A stretch of DNA of 27,229 nt from Fidelibacterota bacterium (lineage in GTDB: Bacteria > Fidelibacterota > Marinisomatia > Marinisomatales > Marinisomataceae). Below the pieces are notes generated by a model. The model was not told the origin of the DNA. It did not search any database and saw nothing but the letters and a program-made list of their open reading frames with translations. The position numbers and the translations under genes are program-made. Below, in pieces: positions 18,123-27,229 of the stretch (the stretch's first letter is position 1; each line of letters opens with the position of its first letter). The stretch spans positions 1 to 27,229 of the forward strand of contig DASCOP010000079.1 of NCBI GenBank assembly GCA_036012065.1, written 5' to 3'.

Positions 18123-18869
18123 TTGAATACTATATTATCTACTTTATTTCTTTCTCTATTATTATCATCTAATCTTATTGCTCAATCTGGCTTTGTAACA
18201 AAAGAAAGCACTATAGCATCGTTTAAAATGGGATCTATGAAATCTTCTACTTATAGTTACTTCTCTGAAAATTCTTACTACTCTAAAATGGGTTTTTCAT
18301 TTAAAGGTAAGGGTCTTGCAAGACTTATGAGTAGAGATATAGAGAATGGGACTGTGATTTCATTTGAAGATTCTACTATTGTAAAAATTAATTATAAGAA
18401 AAATCGTTTTACCAGACAATCATTTTCAGAATTTTTAGCAGAAAAAAATTCTTCAGAAGAAGAGCAAACTGATAATCAGTCTGAAAATGAAGAATCGGAT
18501 GAGGGTGATTCCGATCCTATAGTATCTGATACTCCAGAAATGATCAATGGTTTCGAATCATATAAAATTACTCTAGATGATGGTGAAAACAAGCAGTTCA
18601 TTTGGGTTACTGCAAAAGAAGAACAATCTGATCTTGTAAAAACTATGAAAGAAAGAATTGTTAAATTTGAGGATAACTGGGGAAGTTTTGATATTAATTT
18701 TTCAGAATTGGGTATGAATGAAAATGCCATTCTTGTTAAAGCAGTTTTTAGTGATGAAGATGGTAGTTTTGAATATAATTTAGAAAAATATGCCCCAATA
18801 AATGGAATACCAGAAATGTTCAATATGTCGAAAGATTACAAAAAAGTTAAAAACCTAAAAATGTTCTAA
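18123..18869 (+). CDS. Secreted hypothetical protein, DUF4412-like
   Basis: TTG start. Sec signal peptide ending LIA|Q. Beta-rich body with EMINGFESYKITL..IWVT and a C-terminal MFNMSKDYKKV, which recalls the DUF4412 F-x-x-P-x-x-Y-K ending. Acidic internal linker. Confidence 0.6.
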   Translation: MNTILSTLFLSLLLSSNLIAQSGFVTKESTIASFKMGSMKSSTYSYFSENSYYSKMGFSFKGKGLARLMSRDIENGTVISFEDSTIVKINYKKNRFTRQSFSEFLAEKNSSEEEQTDNQSENEESDEGDSDPIVSDTPEMINGFESYKITLDDGENKQFIWVTAKEEQSDLVKTMKERIVKFEDNWGSFDINFSELGMNENAILVKAVFSDEDGSFEYNLEKYAPINGIPEMFNMSKDYKKVKNLKMF

Positions 18870-19609
18870 GATTTTTCCTTTTTTAATTGTTTAATCATAT
18901 CGTTATACATTAATTCTTCTCTCTTATAAGGCCTATCCAAATCAGTAGCTTCTCTAAATAGAAGTAATGCATCATCTTTTCTTCCAGTCTTCTGATAAGT
19001 TTTACCTAGCCAGTAATATGTACCAATATAATTAGGCTCTAATTCTAAACTCTTCTTTAGAAAATACTCTGCCATCTCAAAAGAACCTTGAGGTGGTTCT
19101 TCAAATATGATTGTAGCTAATCGACGTGATAATGAACTAATATCAGCAAGACGATAATGCCATTGTCCCATTATGTTATAACAAAAAGGATCATTGGGAA
19201 GTTGTTCAATAGCTTGCAAAGAATGGAACTCAATAATTTTAGAGCTTTCAATTTGTGTCCTTATATTTTGATTTTCAACGCTTTTACCGTATGAAACCGC
19301 ATACCATTTATGCACTTGAGCATTAGTAGAATCAATAGACATAGCTTCAACAATATATCCTAACGCCTTGTCCATATTCAATTTTTCTACTTTTTTTTCA
19401 TCCGCTTCTTCCGATAAGAAATGATGTGCTGCCGATAAACGCACTAAAACGTCTATATTTTTTGGAAAAGTGTTATTTAATTTTTGAAGTGGAATAATTG
19501 TTTCTTTGAAATTCAGATTATCTAAATCAATATCAATCTTACTAAAATCTTGCGCATATAAAGCGCTTGCTCCTAAAAAAAGAAAAAATAATTGGATATT
19601 CTTAACCAA
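18866..19609 (-). CDS. Secreted TPR protein of the RMDN1-3 (regulator of microtubule dynamics / PTPIP51)-like family
   Basis: TTG start; signal peptide ending LYA|Q. HKWYA...AIE..PND....MGQWHY..A......R..A..IF..PP..S.E.A......S.E..P follows the RMDN1 TPR pattern as I recall it. Confidence 0.75.
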   Translation of the reverse strand: MVKNIQLFFLFLGASALYAQDFSKIDIDLDNLNFKETIIPLQKLNNTFPKNIDVLVRLSAAHHFLSEEADEKKVEKLNMDKALGYIVEAMSIDSTNAQVHKWYAVSYGKSVENQNIRTQIESSKIIEFHSLQAIEQLPNDPFCYNIMGQWHYRLADISSLSRRLATIIFEEPPQGSFEMAEYFLKKSLELEPNYIGTYYWLGKTYQKTGRKDDALLLFREATDLDRPYKREELMYNDMIKQLKKEKS

Positions 19610-19617
19610 AATATTAA

Positions 19618-20658
19618 TTAAGGATAAAATGATAAAAATACTGGCTGATGATCTGAGATTCTATCAGCAACAGTGCTTGGAACAGTCCCAGTTTCATCTG
19701 GAGTAACAATCACACCCATTGTTGCTGTTGTTTCATATTGGAATAGAGGTGTATTAATTATTATGTGATCAAAGTGTGCTGGTGCATATGAGCTTGTCCA
19801 ACCCTGCCATGAATATCCACTACTTGGACCAGTCAAAATATCTTCATCAATCATAACAAAGCTTTGGGATGAAGCAATGCTAGTATCAGTAAAAGGACTA
19901 ATAGTTGGATTAGTAATAGATTGATCCCCTACATTATTAAAATCGCCAGCAATAATAACATTGTCAGTTGATCTGTTGTTAATAATATAATCAGTTAATA
20001 GCAAGCTCGCATGATGTCTTCTAGTAGTTTCATCTCCTGAATCATTGCTATCATATGTATCATCTCCACAACATTTATAATGGACATTTATCACGTAAAG
20101 ATCCATTGACTTAGTTCCATCAGTCCATGTGATATAACTTTCCATCGGAGGTCTACTAGCAAATTGGTATTGTGCATTGTTACTATAATCTCCATCTCCA
20201 TCATTGCTGTTTGGTGTATCTGACCACAATTCATTCTTAGATACAAATGTTACATTTCCAGTCTTATAAACTAATGCAAATCCAAGATTTCCAGATTCTT
20301 CATCTAAAACATATGAATAGTTTGTCATAGAATTTAACATTTCGATTAATTCAGCTTTTTTCGCATTACTGCCACTTACTTCTTGAAATAAATAAATATC
20401 AGCATTCCATTTTTCTAATAATGCTTTAACATAATCAATTGAACTACTATGCTGAGGAAAATTTCGAATATTCCATGTAACTATTTCTATTTGATTTAGT
20501 TGATCTAGATTGGTTGCATTTGGAAAATCGTAAGGATCAGTTCCATCGCCAGGATCAGTTCCATCGCCAGGATCGGTCGGAGAAGAACTTCCGCCGCCGC
20601 CACAAGCAAAAATTGCTAACAATAAAAGGATAAATAATCTATTGATGAGTTGAGCCAT
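19618..20658 (-). CDS. Endonuclease/exonuclease/phosphatase (DNase I-like) lipoprotein
   Basis: Lipobox IFAC. The full EEP catalytic set is present: TWNIRNF, FQEV, NVHYK, AGDFN, FDHII and SDHQPV. Confidence 0.88.
   Translation of the reverse strand: MAQLINRLFILLLLAIFACGGGGSSSPTDPGDGTDPGDGTDPYDFPNATNLDQLNQIEIVTWNIRNFPQHSSSIDYVKALLEKWNADIYLFQEVSGSNAKKAELIEMLNSMTNYSYVLDEESGNLGFALVYKTGNVTFVSKNELWSDTPNSNDGDGDYSNNAQYQFASRPPMESYITWTDGTKSMDLYVINVHYKCCGDDTYDSNDSGDETTRRHHASLLLTDYIINNRSTDNVIIAGDFNNVGDQSITNPTISPFTDTSIASSQSFVMIDEDILTGPSSGYSWQGWTSSYAPAHFDHIIINTPLFQYETTATMGVIVTPDETGTVPSTVADRISDHQPVFLSFYP
20533..20574. repeat. In-frame 18-bp tandem repeat (about 2.3 copies) encoding DPGDGT linker units
   Basis: AGGATCAGTTCCATCGCC is identical at 20533-20550 and 20551-20568, followed by AGGATC. 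Confidence 0.92.
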
Positions 20659-21568
20659 AGATATAATTTACTAATAAAGTTCCGACTTGTCCTAAGCTTT
20701 GTGGTGAACAATTCTTTGGGGTGTCATATTGAGTATGCCAATAATTATAAAACATATTTGGATATTGAAAATCAATAATATCAATTGCTGGTATTTGTGC
20801 TAATTCCCATAAAGGAACATGATCATCATAAATTTCATTTTCAATTTTCTTTTTAAAGGCAGGCAATGATAGTTCTTCTGCTAAACTCCATATCTCTTTT
20901 ACCTTATCTGGAGCAATGCTATATGAGATTCTTTCAATAGGTATAGTCAGATTCTTATCTCCAACCATGTCCACAATAATTCCAAAATCTGGTTTTTGAA
21001 TAGGAAGATTTTCAGCAAAAAATTTTGACCCAAGAGCAAAGGTTTCTGGTTGTCCTACAATACCGCCATCTTCAGCATCAAAAAATATAACATCAACACC
21101 AATATCTGGATTATAAACCGAAAGAATCTGGCATAATTCCATCAGAACTGCTGTACCGCTTGCTCCATCATTTGCTCCGAGAACTGGCAGACTCTGTTTA
21201 TCTAAAGACTCATCTTGATCCGATAAAGACCTTGTATCCCAATGTGCGCCAATTAAAAGACGATAGTTTGCCTTTTGATTGAATTGAATAATAAAATTTT
21301 TACCATCTCTTTCTGTGTTCGTAATGGGCTCTGTATAAACAAATTCCTGGATAATAAGATTTTCTGATAAATCACTTAAGAAATCGTTTAAATAATTGCT
21401 GAAATCAATGGCTCCATTCGAACCTGGATTCCTTGGACCAAATTCACATTGTTTTTCTAGATATGTAAATGCTTGATTAGAATCAAAAACAGGAATATTG
21501 GGGGACTGTTTTGATTTTTCTGTATTACAGCTGAATAAAAATAAAACTAAAAATAATATTTTTTTCAT
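20639..21568 (-). CDS. M28-fold lipoprotein, probable type II (Zn-dependent) glutaminyl-peptide cyclotransferase
   Basis: Probable start ATG 21568 (MKKILFLVLFLFSC, lipobox). Motifs GPRNPGS, GAHWDTR, GANDGASG, FFDAED, DMVGD, DDHVP and YWHTQYD. Confidence 0.75.
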   Translation of the reverse strand: MKKILFLVLFLFSCNTEKSKQSPNIPVFDSNQAFTYLEKQCEFGPRNPGSNGAIDFSNYLNDFLSDLSENLIIQEFVYTEPITNTERDGKNFIIQFNQKANYRLLIGAHWDTRSLSDQDESLDKQSLPVLGANDGASGTAVLMELCQILSVYNPDIGVDVIFFDAEDGGIVGQPETFALGSKFFAENLPIQKPDFGIIVDMVGDKNLTIPIERISYSIAPDKVKEIWSLAEELSLPAFKKKIENEIYDDHVPLWELAQIPAIDIIDFQYPNMFYNYWHTQYDTPKNCSPQSLGQVGTLLVNYIYGSTHQ

Positions 21569-21569
21569 C

Positions 21570-24500
21570 TTACCCTCTAATTGCCACATTAAGGTTCACT
21601 CCAAAATCACGATCAATTCTACGCCCTGTTAATCTAGTATCATTTTCACGATATTCATAAAATAAGCTACCAGAAACATCATCTGTTAATGAGTAAGTCA
21701 CTCGTAATACGCTCTTCATTGTATTGGTAAAGTTTTGTTCAGCAAAATTAATTTTATCTTTTGATCCTTCTTCTTTTTTCTGACTAATATCAAAATTTAA
21801 AGTGATATTCATATTATTTTTTAAGTATACATTCTTTTCTGTAAATGGCAATGAGAATCTAATCCCCTTAGAAAAATTATAGGTGATACTAGCTAATATA
21901 CTATTATCAGAAATATAAGTTAGACCATTTGCAACCTCATCTAAAGTATGAGTAATATTAGTTCTTACATTTGTTGATATACCATTTTTGAAAGAAGTGG
22001 TAATACCTAAGAGCGGTGTAAAACTACGAGAAGTACGTGAAAACTGTCTATTATCATCATTATCATCTGCAAATGATGAGATACTAAATAAATCAATTGC
22101 ACCAATACTGTCATCATTAAATTTCCAAGATAAATTCTCTTTTCCGCTAAACGAATGCTCTAAAGAAAGAGAATTAACATAAGGAGATATAAACTTAATT
22201 TTTTCTAAACCTCCTACACGTAAAGACCAATTAGAAAAAGGTATGCCCTTTGATAGCTTGTTACCATATGCAAGGTAATCTCTGCTAATAGATCTTGTAT
22301 CAATATTATAACCATTAATATTAGATGAAATACTTTCAGAAAAAGATATATTCAAAGACGTGCTCGGGTTAAAGCGCACCCCTGTTCTAATTGATAATGA
22401 TTTTTTGATATCCTCTGCTCCTGTATTAAGACCTACTTCTGGTACATTCTCTAATTCATGATCACTGCTTAGTCCAAATCTATAGCTCAAAGGAACATCG
22501 CCCATGACACCATTACCTGTTCTATTTGTATTATTAGTAATAGCAATACTTAAAGGTTCTATTTTTTTTGACATTTGATAAATTTGTTCCATGACAAAAC
22601 TATTTTCTATTTTTCTATTTTTCTTTTTCTGCTCAGATTTATCCAATTCAAGATTTTTATTGTTTTCTTTATCTTCAGCTTCACTGTCACTACCTCTTGA
22701 TAAGCCTGCCGGTACAGATCTTGATCTGGTTGTTGGGGTTGTTGCTTTTCTTTTAGAGGCTGGAGTATAAAATGTCTCAATAATCTCTGTACCAGATAAT
22801 GCAAAATTAATCCCTGTATTCTTAACAGCAGATACATTTGCTCCATTAATCACGCTAGATAAAGGCTTGTTCCATGAATAATTTGTGTTGTAAGTAAAAT
22901 TGGGTTTAAACCAACTTAACCATTGAGGATTGAATGTAGATCCAAAAGATTCAGTACTATTTACGACCCTTCCTATTTTCAAATTATCCAATACTTCTTC
23001 CCTATATTCAGACATATCACTTTTAATATTTTTATTGTATGTAAACTGTGTGTTATCAAATACCTTATAATTAATACTAAACTTTCTATCTAAACCCAAG
23101 TTAAAATCGTCAATCAACTCTGGATTAGCCCTTGATTGCTTTTCTGTTAAATTCCGATTAACTCTTATTCCTGTAGCAAATGATGTTGGAGTATAAAAAA
23201 ACTTAGTTTCACTAATCTTTTCTCCAACAACTGGCACCTTTGACATCCATTTAAATGCTTCAATATAGTTATCACTAGGAAATCTGAGATTATAATCAAC
23301 ATTTGTGGTTAATCTCTGAGTATCTACCGACTCCATAATCTCATCAGATCTATTTTGATTAGACATATTAAATGATGCGCTAAGATTGTCAATTGTATAT
23401 TTAACGAAAGGATTCTCTGATTTAATTTGCTTTGATATCTTACCATTCAAAGAAATTGTAGATGATTTTACTAATATAGAGTCTGGTGTTGCCCCGTTAG
23501 TTCTAATATCGGTTCCTGGGAAAAATTTTGGTGCATTATTTTGCATGTTATATGTCATATTAACTGGAAAAGAAATACCAAACCTTTGAGGAAATAGACT
23601 GCCTATTTGCATATTATTTGTAAAGATAAGATTTTCAGTTGTGGTGTTTGTTCCTACTCTTTCTTGGAGAATGTGGAAATCTGCATCTTTTTTACTATAA
23701 GATATAGAGCTCTTATTAAAATCAGATAAATTAAATTCAGATTTTAATCTTACTGCTGTTCCATTTTCCTTTTTTACTCCACTTAAGCGAAGTTCATCTA
23801 ACCAAATCTCACCTGTAATTGGATGGTCAGCATTATTTTCAACTCCTACAATAAAATATTGCAATCTTGATAATGAAGGTTGGCCTACAATCTCAACTTT
23901 TTTATACTCTTGATTATTGTCATCAATAAATTGATATCTTTTGTATCCCAATGAGTCAGTGAAGGTATCATTGGCATTAATCTTTTCAATAGACTCTTCA
24001 TCTATATTCTTTAAACTGGTCAACCAATTTAGGTCAAGATCTACGGCATTTCTCTGTTCATCTTCATCCCAACCATCATACACTGGCTTCGTGAGCTTGT
24101 AATATTCATCTCCAGTACCAAATTTGATAAAAAATCGTAAATCCGTATTACTATCTGATATATTTTCACTATCACCATAAACAAACATTTTCATTTGGTC
24201 GTACATCAAAAAGCTTTGTCCTTTTTGAGATGTCATAGAAGATAAAATTTTCCTTGCTGCTCCTTTAAAGTCTGGATTTAAATTATCAAACCTGAGAACT
24301 AAAGACTGCTCTTTGGATCGTATCTTATTGATTTGATCGTACTCACCAAAAACACCTTTAGGAGGTATATAATCAGGATTATCTTCATCGTTCACTACTG
24401 TCACTAAAAATGTGCTATCTTGTACTGCATAGTTATCTTGGTCTACAAGAGATGTACCCATCTCCTCCCATGCATTTCCTACAAGTTCAATTTTTGCAAT

Positions 24501-27229
24501 CTCTAGCTGTGAGGGTTTGTCAATTCCAGATACTACAAGCCTTACATACTTAATTTCGCTAAGCGTAATATCCTGTACTTTAGCAAAATGATTTAAAGGT
24601 ATTCTTATTAATTTCCAACCTGTTTCTGTACCGTTTACTATAGTAGAACCAGCAACATATGTACTATCATCTAAAGAGATAGTTTTTGTAAAATAATCAT
24701 TTGTCCTATCTAAGAAACCTGACTGATCCAAATCTTCACTATCAGGATATTTACCTCCAGCTTGAATTCTATCGCCAGTACCATTTCCTTCTGTACCATT
24801 AACCTTTGTATAGTCTGAACTACCTTCAATATAATCCCAATTATCACCATTTGGATCATTAACATTTACATCAGATGAAGCGTTGATAATTGATATTTCT
24901 CCGCTAGACAAGTAATCTTGATAGGTTAGTCCATCTTCTTGGCTCAAACAATCTCCCCAGCCATCTTCAAAACTATCAAAACAACCATCGAGTCCTGTAT
25001 CTTCACTATCTTCTAAGAATCCATTACCAAGGGCTAATCCTGCATCTGGAACATCTTCGTTATTCAGAGATCCGTTATCATTGTAGTCTTCACTAATTTT
25101 GCCTAAATCCACTGTTAAATTACCTTCATCTCCACGTAACCAAATTTCAAAAAATCTGCTTCTAGTTTGATCATAATCAGATATAAACATTGGAGTAATT
25201 ACGCCAGCCCATACAGAGTCAGGATCTACGGTTTCTTGATATTCTTTTGGTTCAAAATCTAAAACTAAAATATCTGTAGTAAGATTTTGTGCTCTTTGCG
25301 ATGTAGAAATATTCGGCCAAATATTATTTGTTAATACTTGGGAATAAGGATTGTACCAATGCATTCTCGCTCGATTTCTTTGATTAAAAGATTGATTGGT
25401 ATCAAGATTTAATGGAGCGGAAGAAATATTCCAAAATCTTCTCAATATTGATGGACTTGTAACACGTTTTGAGCCCTCAAAGTCATCGATATAAGCCACC
25501 CCATCACTGTCTCCAATAGCAGAGTTAGATATCGCATTGGGGTTAGGCAGTACTTGTGCGATTTCTCCTTCTAAAGTAAACCTAGATAACTTTTCAGCAT
25601 TAAACATATCAAGATTATTTAGAGATGCAGATAAATTCTCTAAATCCTTCTCATAACGACCATTAATATCCCAAATAAAATTTCGGATTGGTTCAAAGCC
25701 TACTTCTACTTTTTTATTAACAATATCCTGATTGTAATAAAGAGCTGTCATTCCTAAGAATGAATTTTTATCAAAATCAATTTGTGCACGAGAACCAACC
25801 ATAATTTTTCTATCGAATGTAACTAGGTCATGCTTATCATATACAATTTCTAAATCACTATTGGGATCAATATTGCCAGTAAGCATTATCATCCCAGAAA
25901 AATAATCAATCTGATAATCTTGACCTCTTTCAAGTTTCTCTCCATTAGAATAAATCTCTTCACTCCCCTCTACTAATGTAAATCCTAGATTAATAGTAGA
26001 CTTTGGATTGGTATAATTTGCTGCAATGGTAAAACGAGAATCTCCTGTATATTCTGTACGATTAGTGCTCGTATACATTTTACCCTGTTGGAGTAAAGAG
26101 TTTAATGTCGAATTATCATTTCCACCGTCCAAATTATTACTTGAAACAAAAGGTAGGAGTGCAGGTAAATGCACTTCTCCTGCTTTCAAATTCACAATAT
26201 TAGGGTTATTAAAATCAATAATTTCATCCGGTGAAGATGCACCGGATTGATTAAGGTTATCTAATCCAAATAAATTTAAGAATGTGGCACCACTGTTTGT
26301 TCTATCGCTTACAGGTGTAGAAAAATTATCTAGAATTCTAACGCCTAAACTAGTTTCATCAATATTAGTTGCTCCAAGAGAGTATACATTCTTAAACATA
26401 AGATCCCATGTTGGATGATTAGGGTGTGATGACTGTGCTTTTAGCATCTTCAAGACTAAGGTGGTATTGCCATCATCCCCAATATTTGATCCAACCTTTA
26501 AAACAACTTCTCCTGTTGTTCTATTTGCCAATTCAAAATGTGTACCTATAATTTCATTTTGAAGAGTATTTTGCATTCTTATAAATCCTAAATCTTCGTT
26601 AATGGCATAGTCGGAGCCTCGTTCTAGCTTAATAAACGCTCCTTCTTTACTACTATCATTATAAAGGGTGGTATCGTTAGGATCAATATATGCTGTTCCT
26701 GGATCTGCTTGTGGATTGTTAGATGCATCAATTTTATAAAGCTCAAAATTTCTTACTACTAAATTACCAATACTATGCAATCCGTTATTTAAAGGATAAT
26801 AAGAAGGTACATTGACTTGAAATCCGCTATCTGGTATTATATCAGAAGAACCATTTCTAAACCATTCGTGGATAAAGAAATATAGATTTTTTCTATACTC
26901 ATAATCTTCTATCTGATTTTCTCTTACTTCAGAAGTGCCTTTGTATTTTTCAGATTGCTTCTTGGTTCTCTCCAGTGATGCTATACTCGTAATGTTAAGT
27001 GGACCTAACTGTGAGAGAGCTTTAATACCAAAGAGACCTTTATTTTGTCCTGAAAATGTGACAAACTCAGTAGAAGGTAGTGCAAGCGAGATATTTCCTA
27101 TTTCAAGTCTTTGTAAAATATCATCTTCATCTCCAGCATAATCAACACGAATAGTATTCTCCCAATCAAAGTCTCTTTCGGAATTTTGATCTAAAGATAT
27201 AGTGATTCTTTCACCAACCTTCCCTTGAA
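21570..27229 (-). CDS. sprA: SprA/Sov family giant outer-membrane beta-barrel (T9SS translocon homologue), 5'-partial
   Basis: The frame is open from 27227 (at least 1885 codons); the ORF-track start at 26780 is internal. The upstream part reads QGKVGERITISLDQNSERDFDWENTIRVDYAGDEDDILQRLEIGNISL...GLFGIK, the SprA N-region pattern. Downstream: WDLMFKNVYSLG, GEIAQVLP, YIDDFEGS, RARMHWY, DPNGDNW, NGTEGN, PDSED, GEIWLDELRLSG and a C-terminal beta-signal-like FGVNLNV. Confidence 0.92.
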   Translation of the reverse strand, partial: QGKVGERITISLDQNSERDFDWENTIRVDYAGDEDDILQRLEIGNISLALPSTEFVTFSGQNKGLFGIKALSQLGPLNITSIASLERTKKQSEKYKGTSEVRENQIEDYEYRKNLYFFIHEWFRNGSSDIIPDSGFQVNVPSYYPLNNGLHSIGNLVVRNFELYKIDASNNPQADPGTAYIDPNDTTLYNDSSKEGAFIKLERGSDYAINEDLGFIRMQNTLQNEIIGTHFELANRTTGEVVLKVGSNIGDDGNTTLVLKMLKAQSSHPNHPTWDLMFKNVYSLGATNIDETSLGVRILDNFSTPVSDRTNSGATFLNLFGLDNLNQSGASSPDEIIDFNNPNIVNLKAGEVHLPALLPFVSSNNLDGGNDNSTLNSLLQQGKMYTSTNRTEYTGDSRFTIAANYTNPKSTINLGFTLVEGSEEIYSNGEKLERGQDYQIDYFSGMIMLTGNIDPNSDLEIVYDKHDLVTFDRKIMVGSRAQIDFDKNSFLGMTALYYNQDIVNKKVEVGFEPIRNFIWDINGRYEKDLENLSASLNNLDMFNAEKLSRFTLEGEIAQVLPNPNAISNSAIGDSDGVAYIDDFEGSKRVTSPSILRRFWNISSAPLNLDTNQSFNQRNRARMHWYNPYSQVLTNNIWPNISTSQRAQNLTTDILVLDFEPKEYQETVDPDSVWAGVITPMFISDYDQTRSRFFEIWLRGDEGNLTVDLGKISEDYNDNGSLNNEDVPDAGLALGNGFLEDSEDTGLDGCFDSFEDGWGDCLSQEDGLTYQDYLSSGEISIINASSDVNVNDPNGDNWDYIEGSSDYTKVNGTEGNGTGDRIQAGGKYPDSEDLDQSGFLDRTNDYFTKTISLDDSTYVAGSTIVNGTETGWKLIRIPLNHFAKVQDITLSEIKYVRLVVSGIDKPSQLEIAKIELVGNAWEEMGTSLVDQDNYAVQDSTFLVTVVNDEDNPDYIPPKGVFGEYDQINKIRSKEQSLVLRFDNLNPDFKGAARKILSSMTSQKGQSFLMYDQMKMFVYGDSENISDSNTDLRFFIKFGTGDEYYKLTKPVYDGWDEDEQRNAVDLDLNWLTSLKNIDEESIEKINANDTFTDSLGYKRYQFIDDNNQEYKKVEIVGQPSLSRLQYFIVGVENNADHPITGEIWLDELRLSGVKKENGTAVRLKSEFNLSDFNKSSISYSKKDADFHILQERVGTNTTTENLIFTNNMQIGSLFPQRFGISFPVNMTYNMQNNAPKFFPGTDIRTNGATPDSILVKSSTISLNGKISKQIKSENPFVKYTIDNLSASFNMSNQNRSDEIMESVDTQRLTTNVDYNLRFPSDNYIEAFKWMSKVPVVGEKISETKFFYTPTSFATGIRVNRNLTEKQSRANPELIDDFNLGLDRKFSINYKVFDNTQFTYNKNIKSDMSEYREEVLDNLKIGRVVNSTESFGSTFNPQWLSWFKPNFTYNTNYSWNKPLSSVINGANVSAVKNTGINFALSGTEIIETFYTPASKRKATTPTTRSRSVPAGLSRGSDSEAEDKENNKNLELDKSEQKKKNRKIENSFVMEQIYQMSKKIEPLSIAITNNTNRTGNGVMGDVPLSYRFGLSSDHELENVPEVGLNTGAEDIKKSLSIRTGVRFNPSTSLNISFSESISSNINGYNIDTRSISRDYLAYGNKLSKGIPFSNWSLRVGGLEKIKFISPYVNSLSLEHSFSGKENLSWKFNDDSIGAIDLFSISSFADDNDDNRQFSRTSRSFTPLLGITTSFKNGISTNVRTNITHTLDEVANGLTYISDNSILASITYNFSKGIRFSLPFTEKNVYLKNNMNITLNFDISQKKEEGSKDKINFAEQNFTNTMKSVLRVTYSLTDDVSGSLFYEYRENDTRLTGRRIDRDFGVNLNVAIRG

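Follow-up and report, generated by a model that had tools for sequence, protein, structure and literature searches.

The gene at positions 18,866 to 19,609 of the window (the whole 27,229-nucleotide stretch of DNA that was analysed) encodes, as judged from profile searches and a predicted structure, a genuine bacterial member of the RMD1-3 (PF21033) family of TPR proteins, to which the eukaryotic RMDN1, RMDN2 and RMDN3/PTPIP51 belong. We read the gene product as a soluble periplasmic protein that is exported by the Sec pathway, and we tentatively favour, at somewhat less than even confidence, a role as a carrier or adaptor for lipid or lipid-like cargo at the outer membrane. The window corresponds to contig 79 of a 0.8 Mb assembly (82% complete) and derives from a genus of Marinimicrobia (SAR406) whose complete genomes are about 1 Mb in size. 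The family itself is known and Pfam already tags such bacterial proteins automatically. In the literature that we searched, no paper on bacterial RMDN members was found and RMDN proteins are treated as eukaryote-specific; a preprint counts PF21033 among the domains characteristic of Holozoa (bioRxiv 10.1101/2023.12.07.570557). The features of the window are as follows.

18866..19609, minus strand: RMD1-3 (PF21033) family TPR gene, TTG start, 247 codons (247 aa)
19553..19609, minus strand: predicted Sec signal peptide, aa 1-19, from sequence features and conservation in the genus and the phylum family
18869..19552, minus strand: mature 12-helix domain, aa 20-247, with short helix 8 (aa 159-168) and terminal helix 12 (aa 229-246)
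19070..19171, minus strand: most conserved core common to eukaryotic RMDNs (MGQWHY, helix 8, PP..SFE.A), from conservation
19618..20658, minus strand: EEP-fold lipoprotein gene, ExeM/NucH/MnuA-like nuclease, upstream of the TPR gene with a gap of 8 nt
20639..21589, minus strand: type II glutaminyl cyclase (M28 fold), phmmer match to 6qro, E 5.1e-48
21570..27227, minus strand: sprA/sov type IX translocon gene, TIGR04189, E 1.6e-201, 5′ end cut by the window edge
18123..18869, plus strand: convergent gene for a 248-aa exported protein, stop overlapping the TPR stop by 4 nt, syntenic across the genus

The best Pfam match of the TPR protein was RMD1-3 (E 5.3e-16, 59 bits against a cut-off of 26.7), spanning profile positions 38-217 of 235; the same match had an E-value of 1.8e-16 in the genome-level search. 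When the PDB was searched by sequence with phmmer, the TPR domain of RMDN3/PTPIP51 (7cc7) was matched at 22-23% identity in one collinear stretch of about 180 residues (query 50-233 against chain 37-220, E 7.7e-17). A search of 1.84 billion representative proteins returned 7337 matches at E ≤1e-3 and 790 at E ≤1e-10. Among these were named RMDN1 or RMDN2 proteins from snake, damselfly (E 5.2e-24), lobster, sea cucumber and fish (range 1e-17 to 5e-24), and the best-scoring eukaryotic relatives were of the RMDN1 type (E 5e-24 to 1e-20). Full-length matches in a single stretch were also obtained with acoel and dictyostelid proteins named RMDN1 or RMDN2, and with proteins from metagenome-assembled genomes of Spirochaetota, Chthoniobacteraceae and Cloacimonadota. 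In addition, PF21033 was matched by all 22 phylum relatives tested and by all 12 representative members of a branch from soil bacteria. NCBIfam assigned no family to the TPR protein.

Several generic TPR models of Pfam (TPR_1, 2, 8, 11, 17 and 19) also match the protein, and designed consensus TPR proteins outrank 7cc7 in the raw phmmer list, as would be seen if this were a generic TPR protein whose likeness to RMDN proteins is convergent or due to chance. The generic models match only the last repeat (aa 174-226, one canonical repeat pair), the remainder of the domain being recognised by PF21033 alone, and the designed proteins owe their rank to repeated matches to one repeat. The collinearity of the RMDN match, the reciprocal matches to proteins named RMDN1 and RMDN2 and the fold comparison described below argue against this reading, which the Pfam, phmmer, protein-library and fold matches together effectively refute and which we hold to be next to impossible. 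Membership of the TatT family was rejected on sequence, PF16811 being matched neither by the window protein nor by any of the 22 relatives.

An AlphaFold2 model of the TPR protein, made with a 77-sequence alignment (pLDDT 94.3, pTM 0.87), has a signal helix followed by 12 helices, of which helix 8 is short and helix 12 long and terminal, and it is helical to the last residues; this is the arrangement that characterises RMD1-3 domains. Foldseek ranked 7cc7 first (E 8e-10, TM 0.77/0.84, rmsd 1.9 Å). In a fold comparison scored by Z, 7cc7 stood 7 Z units above the next match and about 10 above generic TPRs. In the PTPIP51 domain, which also consists of 12 helices, TPR2 and TPR3 form a deep channel that is plugged by helix 8, while helix 12 runs across the cleft (PMC10243591). 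Across 77 bacterial and eukaryotic sequences P173 is invariant, and P138, G148, W150, A165, A180 and A214 are nearly so; apart from P138 and A214, these residues lie inside the core at 19070..19171, and the residues conserved across both domains of life fall mostly in helices 7-9.

The original prediction had assigned the protein to the RMDN family on the basis of a signal peptide and a series of motifs, all of which we located: HKWYA at aa 100-104 (nt 19298-19312), MGQWHY at aa 147-152 (nt 19154-19171) and R..A..IF..PP..S.E.A at aa 163-180 (nt 19070-19123). The assignment was borne out in the comparison of profiles, where RMD1-3 came out ahead of the generic TPR models and TatT gave no match, as well as in the PDB search, in which 7cc7 was the top match apart from the designed repeats, and in the comparison with the RMDN3 fold.

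Like PTPIP51/RMDN3 (7CC7), to which it is homologous over the whole domain, the window protein has 12 helices, of which helix 8 is short and helix 12 terminal, and it shows HKWY, G.W.Y, helix 8 and PP..S.E.A in the same series. Unlike PTPIP51/RMDN3, it carries a predicted cleavable signal peptide in place of the mitochondrial membrane anchor, lacks FFAT motifs and a coiled coil, and is a stand-alone protein of 247 aa in a bacterial clade. It is therefore not a strict RMDN3/PTPIP51 orthologue, lacking the N-terminal anchor, the FFAT motifs and the coiled coil and falling in a clade apart from the eukaryotic one. Animal RMDN1 resembles it in having a soluble TPR domain, reportedly in a compartment that is topologically equivalent to the periplasm, but is targeted by a mitochondrial presequence. 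Further close known systems are the sterol carrier BstC (7T1S) and the TatT/T-component proteins (3U64, 8G52), whose profile PF16811 is not matched; the next-closest folds belong to periplasmic proteins that carry hydrophobic ligands (PMC10942540).

The TTG start codon of the TPR gene is located 8 nt past the stop codon of the upstream EEP gene. The encoded N-terminus contains a single Lys as its only basic residue, a hydrophobic run of 15 residues and then A|QD, so that cleavage is predicted after A19 and would leave an N-terminal Gln on the mature protein. Of 13 orthologues checked from the genus, 12 retain a TTG or GTG start and a signal-like segment despite divergence of the DNA, the thirteenth (L040) having been read from an upstream ORF start. 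A comparable segment is present in all 22 aligned phylum relatives, where it usually ends in A-Q or G-Q. Many public gene calls for this protein are 231 aa long; these appear to begin at an internal (Leu) codon and would thereby lose the signal peptide. The conservation of the signal peptide speaks for a periplasmic location. The N-terminus has no cysteine lipobox, and a type IX C-terminal sorting domain (CTD) is absent, nothing being found beyond the 12-helix domain. The protein had initially been described as secreted; its export is supported by the conserved signal peptide, but with neither a lipobox nor a type IX CTD it is better called periplasmic.

In the window, the sprA, cyclase, EEP and TPR genes are separated by 1 to 20 nt or overlap, and the TPR gene probably shares a transcript with the sprA - glutaminyl cyclase - nuclease-lipoprotein operon. 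The true start of the cyclase is likely its second Met, which would make it a lipoprotein, and the EEP neighbour had no solved-structure relative by sequence. The gene order, including the convergent gene, was kept in 21 of 21 species loci of the genus and its close kin, counting L031, a short contig on which sprA itself would lie past the contig end. The 248-aa product of the convergent gene is DUF4412-like, an observation that we treat as a lead only. Linkage of the EEP and TPR genes recurs within the order, where sprA or an EEP gene was found near the TPR gene in three arrangements (L019, L056, L071 and L079; L058 and L109; L018, L069 and L075), with sprA itself in L019, L056 and L071 and in L058 and L109. 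Among the phylum, Cloacimonadota and soil loci compared, the TPR gene was not near sprA outside the window's order. The linkage of sprA and the TPR gene is thus real but specific to this lineage, that is, the genus and its order.

The operon could be taken to mean that the TPR protein is a dedicated accessory of the type IX translocon, as the original prediction had suggested among other roles. The tight spacing in the window, the order kept in all 21 genus-level loci (with sprA off the short L031 contig) and the nearby sprA in two further arrangements within the order agree with this proposal. However, SprA was found in 199 of 201 phylum genomes and the TPR family in 106 of them, which argues that the TPR protein is not a core type IX part; in family f24, SprA was present in 32 of 33 genomes and the TPR protein in none of the 33. 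Moreover, over most of the phylum, and also in Cloacimonadota and soil bacteria, the gene lies away from sprA, and the protein matched none of the NCBIfam models of type IX components. We therefore consider a translocon accessory very unlikely and this suggestion unsupported. A role of the TPR protein as type IX cargo was likewise rejected, as it has no sorting domain. The placement in the sprA operon suggests shared expression of envelope genes and not a function devoted to type IX secretion.

Across the phylum, PF21033 was matched in 106 of the 201 genomes sampled, almost always once per genome and with scores of up to 125 bits compared to 59 for the window protein, while none of 14 control genomes was matched. 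In some families, weak matches below the cut-off adjoin a gene encoding a putative barrel (see below), so the true prevalence is above 106 of 201. The RMD1-3 family also occurs in Cloacimonadota and soil bacteria. The lists of related loci were obtained with narrow peptide patterns, and the taxa recovered are consequently a biased sample and not a census.

Outside the genus, 40 of 59 species loci had a gene of about 255 codons directly upstream of the TPR gene on the same strand, with a gap of at most 181 nt in 37 of these 40. Its product carries a signal peptide and ends in E-(F/Y)-F at the C-terminus; Gly, Asp and Asn residues are invariant at many positions. The predicted structure is all-beta (pLDDT 83) and matches the folds of FapF, NanC, KdgM and designed 12-strand barrels, suggesting that this partner is a 12-strand outer-membrane barrel of an uncharacterised family. 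Its Pfam matches to OMP_b-brl and YjbH are weak and mostly below threshold, a single YjbH match (26.5 bits against a cut-off of 24) just passing. NCBIfam has no family for the barrel or for the other upstream neighbours, and in a protein atlas the barrel family is listed as hypothetical and occurs in Fidelibacterota and Calditrichota. The barrel-TPR pair often stands alone between unrelated genes and thus behaves as a two-gene cassette.

The barrel model was found in 136 of the 201 phylum genomes and in none of 16 genomes of the window genus (the window genome, 82% complete, and 15 others), including seven that are at least 90% complete. It was not found either in the two genomes of family f12, a relative within the order, where the TPR gene follows an EEP gene as in the window. 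We also asked whether the convergent 248-aa gene could be a disguised barrel and rejected this, as it had no phmmer similarity and its lead is DUF4412-like. Among 18 relatives from outside the genus, 62 alignment columns are conserved in at least 85% of the sequences; the window protein has retained 29 of these and differs at the other 33, the differences including two Trp, two Arg and the helix 5-helix 6 loop. At most of the changed columns the four sequences from the genus are in agreement, and the genus sits on a long tree branch (0.9). This pattern fits the loss of a partner with re-tuning of the protein under continued selection, and not a decaying gene.

Other neighbours were found outside the phylum. 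From a GC-rich branch of soil and peat metagenomes we sampled 80 loci. A cyclopropane-fatty-acyl-phospholipid-synthase-like (CMAS) gene (E ~1e-40) lay upstream on the same strand within 2.5 kb in 14 of the 34 soil loci that had at least 1.2 kb of upstream flank, typically in the order DUF1295 - CMAS - secreted alpha/beta-hydrolase esterase (BD-FAE) - TPR, the genes being a few nucleotides apart. Genes of the DUF1295 and CMAS-like types are components of stress-induced clusters for the modification of membrane fatty acids, one example being the furan fatty acid genes of Rhodobacter. Where at least 1.5 kb of downstream sequence was available (32 soil loci), a TonB-dependent receptor started 135-330 nt past the TPR gene in nine. 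No 12-strand barrel was present among the soil loci. In Cloacimonadota, the context as read from sequence consists of a MoxR-like ATPase, an OsmC-like protein and a small lipoprotein, and neither the barrel nor lipid genes were found near these loci.

Two themes therefore recur near bacterial members of the family, namely outer-membrane barrels and enzymes that act on membrane lipids. For the RMDN3 TPR domain, lipid binding and transfer in vitro have been reported, with phosphatidic acid and lipid radicals as ligands (PMC10243591, reviewing Yeo 2021; PMC11811300), although the lipid-transfer role of PTPIP51 is itself disputed (PMC10243591). It is because of these two themes, the reports on RMDN3 and the hydrophobic-ligand carriers among the next-closest folds that we favour a carrier of lipid cargo. 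The homology, the predicted fold, the signal peptide and the gene neighbourhoods come directly from the comparisons above; for ligand, partner and mechanism we infer the following. The Sec-exported, soluble TPR protein would bind a lipid or lipid-like hydrophobic molecule in a putative channel among its 12 helices and carry or present it on the periplasmic side of the outer membrane, a task that it would originally have shared with the 12-strand outer-membrane barrel. In the streamlined SAR406 genus, in which the barrel gene was not found, the TPR protein may then have been re-tuned at about half of the positions conserved in the family, and its gene may have moved to the 8-nt spacing with the sprA - glutaminyl cyclase - nuclease-lipoprotein operon. 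The neighbours of the bacterial relatives fit a lipid-handling role, which the original prediction had proposed and which thereby gains indirect support, and do not prove it. TPR folds usually mediate protein-protein contacts, and the gene contexts differ between clades, both of which speak against a lipid role. Near the window gene itself, no lipid-related gene adjoins and the barrel is also missing. As the genus has no barrel and 33 of 62 conserved positions are changed, features of the relatives may not hold for the window protein.

The main rival to a lipid-cargo carrier is a periplasmic protein-protein adaptor, in which the TPR protein would dock on an outer-membrane barrel or its cargo, and in the window lineage might help the neighbouring nuclease lipoprotein to reach the surface. 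This is compatible with lipid handling and the two are not mutually exclusive. Partner binding is the usual function of TPR domains, and periplasmic TPR proteins work with outer-membrane barrels in AlgK-AlgE, in PgaA, BcsC and PelB through their TPR parts, and in Slam, whose TPR serves surface lipoproteins. As in these systems, a periplasmic TPR protein and an outer-membrane barrel are paired genetically in most of the phylum, the cassette being present in 40 of the 59 species loci; in the soil relatives a TonB-dependent receptor adjoins the TPR gene, and within the order the barrel-TPR pair, or the TPR gene alone, has an EEP lipoprotein gene immediately upstream. The barrel also gave the weak YjbH (exopolysaccharide) matches, and one of the 22 relatives gave a weak TPR_Slam match. 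In contrast to these systems, however, the TPR protein belongs to another family, the 12-strand barrel is small, no polymer or polysaccharide synthesis genes adjoin, and the pair is missing from the window genome. The Slam match is below the cut-off and those to YjbH are mostly so, the one at 26.5 bits lying just over 24. Furthermore, eukaryotic relatives keep the same conserved core without such a barrel partner, and the protein persists without the barrel in the window genus and in the two f12 genomes. On balance, an adaptor seems to us rather unlikely, and less likely than the lipid-cargo carrier.

Whether the PTPIP51 TPR domain moves lipids at contacts between ER and mitochondria is disputed (PMC10243591), and a large exported bacterial branch could help to settle this question: its neighbours, barrels and lipid-modifying enzymes, are independent circumstantial evidence, and its members are small, soluble and easily expressed proteins for direct lipid tests. 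For SAR406 biology, one conserved envelope protein is added, along with an example of a streamlined lineage that gave up a partner gene and re-tuned the protein that remained. Of all members of the family, the window gene tells us the least, and the value lies in the family and not in this locus.

Human RMDN1 has been reported in the mitochondrial intermembrane space (bioRxiv 10.64898/2026.04.03.716438), which makes a continuity from periplasm to intermembrane space conceivable. A bolder and, in our estimate, improbable scenario is that RMD1-3 was an old bacterial periplasmic shuttle for membrane lipids, perhaps those that had been modified or damaged, running between the inner membrane and barrels of the outer membrane, and was acquired once by eukaryotes, with RMDN1 keeping the ancestral topology and RMDN2 and RMDN3 being redeployed to the cytosolic face. 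If this were true, the disputed lipid role of PTPIP51 would gain its first support from comparative genomics, in the form of the bacterial neighbourhoods with a 12-strand barrel, a TonB-dependent receptor or DUF1295 - cyclopropane-synthase-like - esterase genes.

The relationship to the eukaryotic proteins was also followed in a quick, unrooted maximum-likelihood tree of 101 domain sequences (LG+G4, SH-aLRT support); because it is quick and unrooted, we claim neither a donor nor a direction of transfer. Most rows are unnamed metagenome proteins with imperfect N-terminal category calls, and the tree is read through the placement of the named rows, which alone is reliable. All eight sequences named as eukaryotic fell in one clade of 46 rows (support 97), apart from the named bacterial rows. 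Phylum relatives score twice as high as the window protein against the eukaryote-built Pfam model, and the window protein is thus, by its sequence, not specially close to eukaryotes; its genus falls at the base of the tree without a resolved placement there. Soil, Spirochaetota and Verrucomicrobiota sequences form a third clade of 22 rows (support 99). Marinimicrobia and Cloacimonadota group in a clade of 29 rows (support 95), and a GC-rich group of four sequences (P0155, P0174, P0190 and P0200) is placed inside this FCB clade.

In the immediate surroundings of the RMD1-3 family TPR gene, we found three further genes for predicted exported or M28-fold proteins in the window:

18123-18869, (+) strand: convergent exported protein of 248 aa
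19618-20658, (-) strand: EEP-fold nuclease-like lipoprotein
20639-21589, (-) strand: type II bacterial glutaminyl cyclase of the M28 fold (match to 6qro, E 5.1e-48)

The glutaminyl cyclase gene is flanked by sprA and the nuclease-like lipoprotein gene. Once its signal peptide is cleaved, the TPR protein is predicted to present an exposed Gln, as is the convergent protein of 248 aa. A 'Q-rule' is known from Bacteroidota, and the Gln predicted in these two sequences is a match to this rule, which would thereby be extended to SAR406. The convergent protein is conserved in the genus and contains an acidic insert; no Pfam family was found for it, and the DUF4412-like assignment suggested by the protein atlas is a lead only. 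In the lipoprotein, the lipobox Cys is followed by a run of Gly/Ser residues and by a linker that is repeated and rich in Asp-Pro-Gly.

Searching related loci that carry RMD1-3 genes, we found an uncharacterised protein family, about 255 aa long and invariant at many positions, modelled as a 12-strand outer-membrane barrel, at about 40 loci in addition to these two:

L023, 10725-11495, (-) strand: 12-strand outer-membrane barrel gene
L018, 8755-9546, (+) strand: 12-strand outer-membrane barrel gene

The barrel gene nearly always lies directly ahead of an RMD1-3 gene, and throughout the order the TPR gene or the barrel-TPR pair is preceded upstream by one or two EEP genes. Of the 201 Marinimicrobia phylum genomes sampled, 136 were found to carry the barrel family; clusters of Calditrichota include it as well.

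Other neighbourhoods were found in soil and peat metagenome contigs (L166, L174, L177, L183, L186 and others). Here, the operon order is DUF1295, a cyclopropane-synthase-like methyltransferase, a secreted BD-FAE esterase and the RMD1-3 TPR protein, while in other such contigs a TonB-dependent receptor gene comes after the TPR gene.

Among the public homologues, P0004-P0018 (231 aa) appear to have been given an internal codon as start by the gene callers, so that the true TTG/GTG start and the signal peptide would be absent from many database entries. When locus L064, labelled 'uncultured Lentisphaeria', was compared with L012, its TPR protein was the same over the aligned domain as that of the Marinimicrobia genome G015; the record is probably mislabelled or mis-binned. 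In the representative library, P0155, P0174, P0190 and P0200 form a group that is GC-rich, has long N-terminal extensions and is nested within the Marinimicrobia/Cloacimonadota clade of the unrooted tree.
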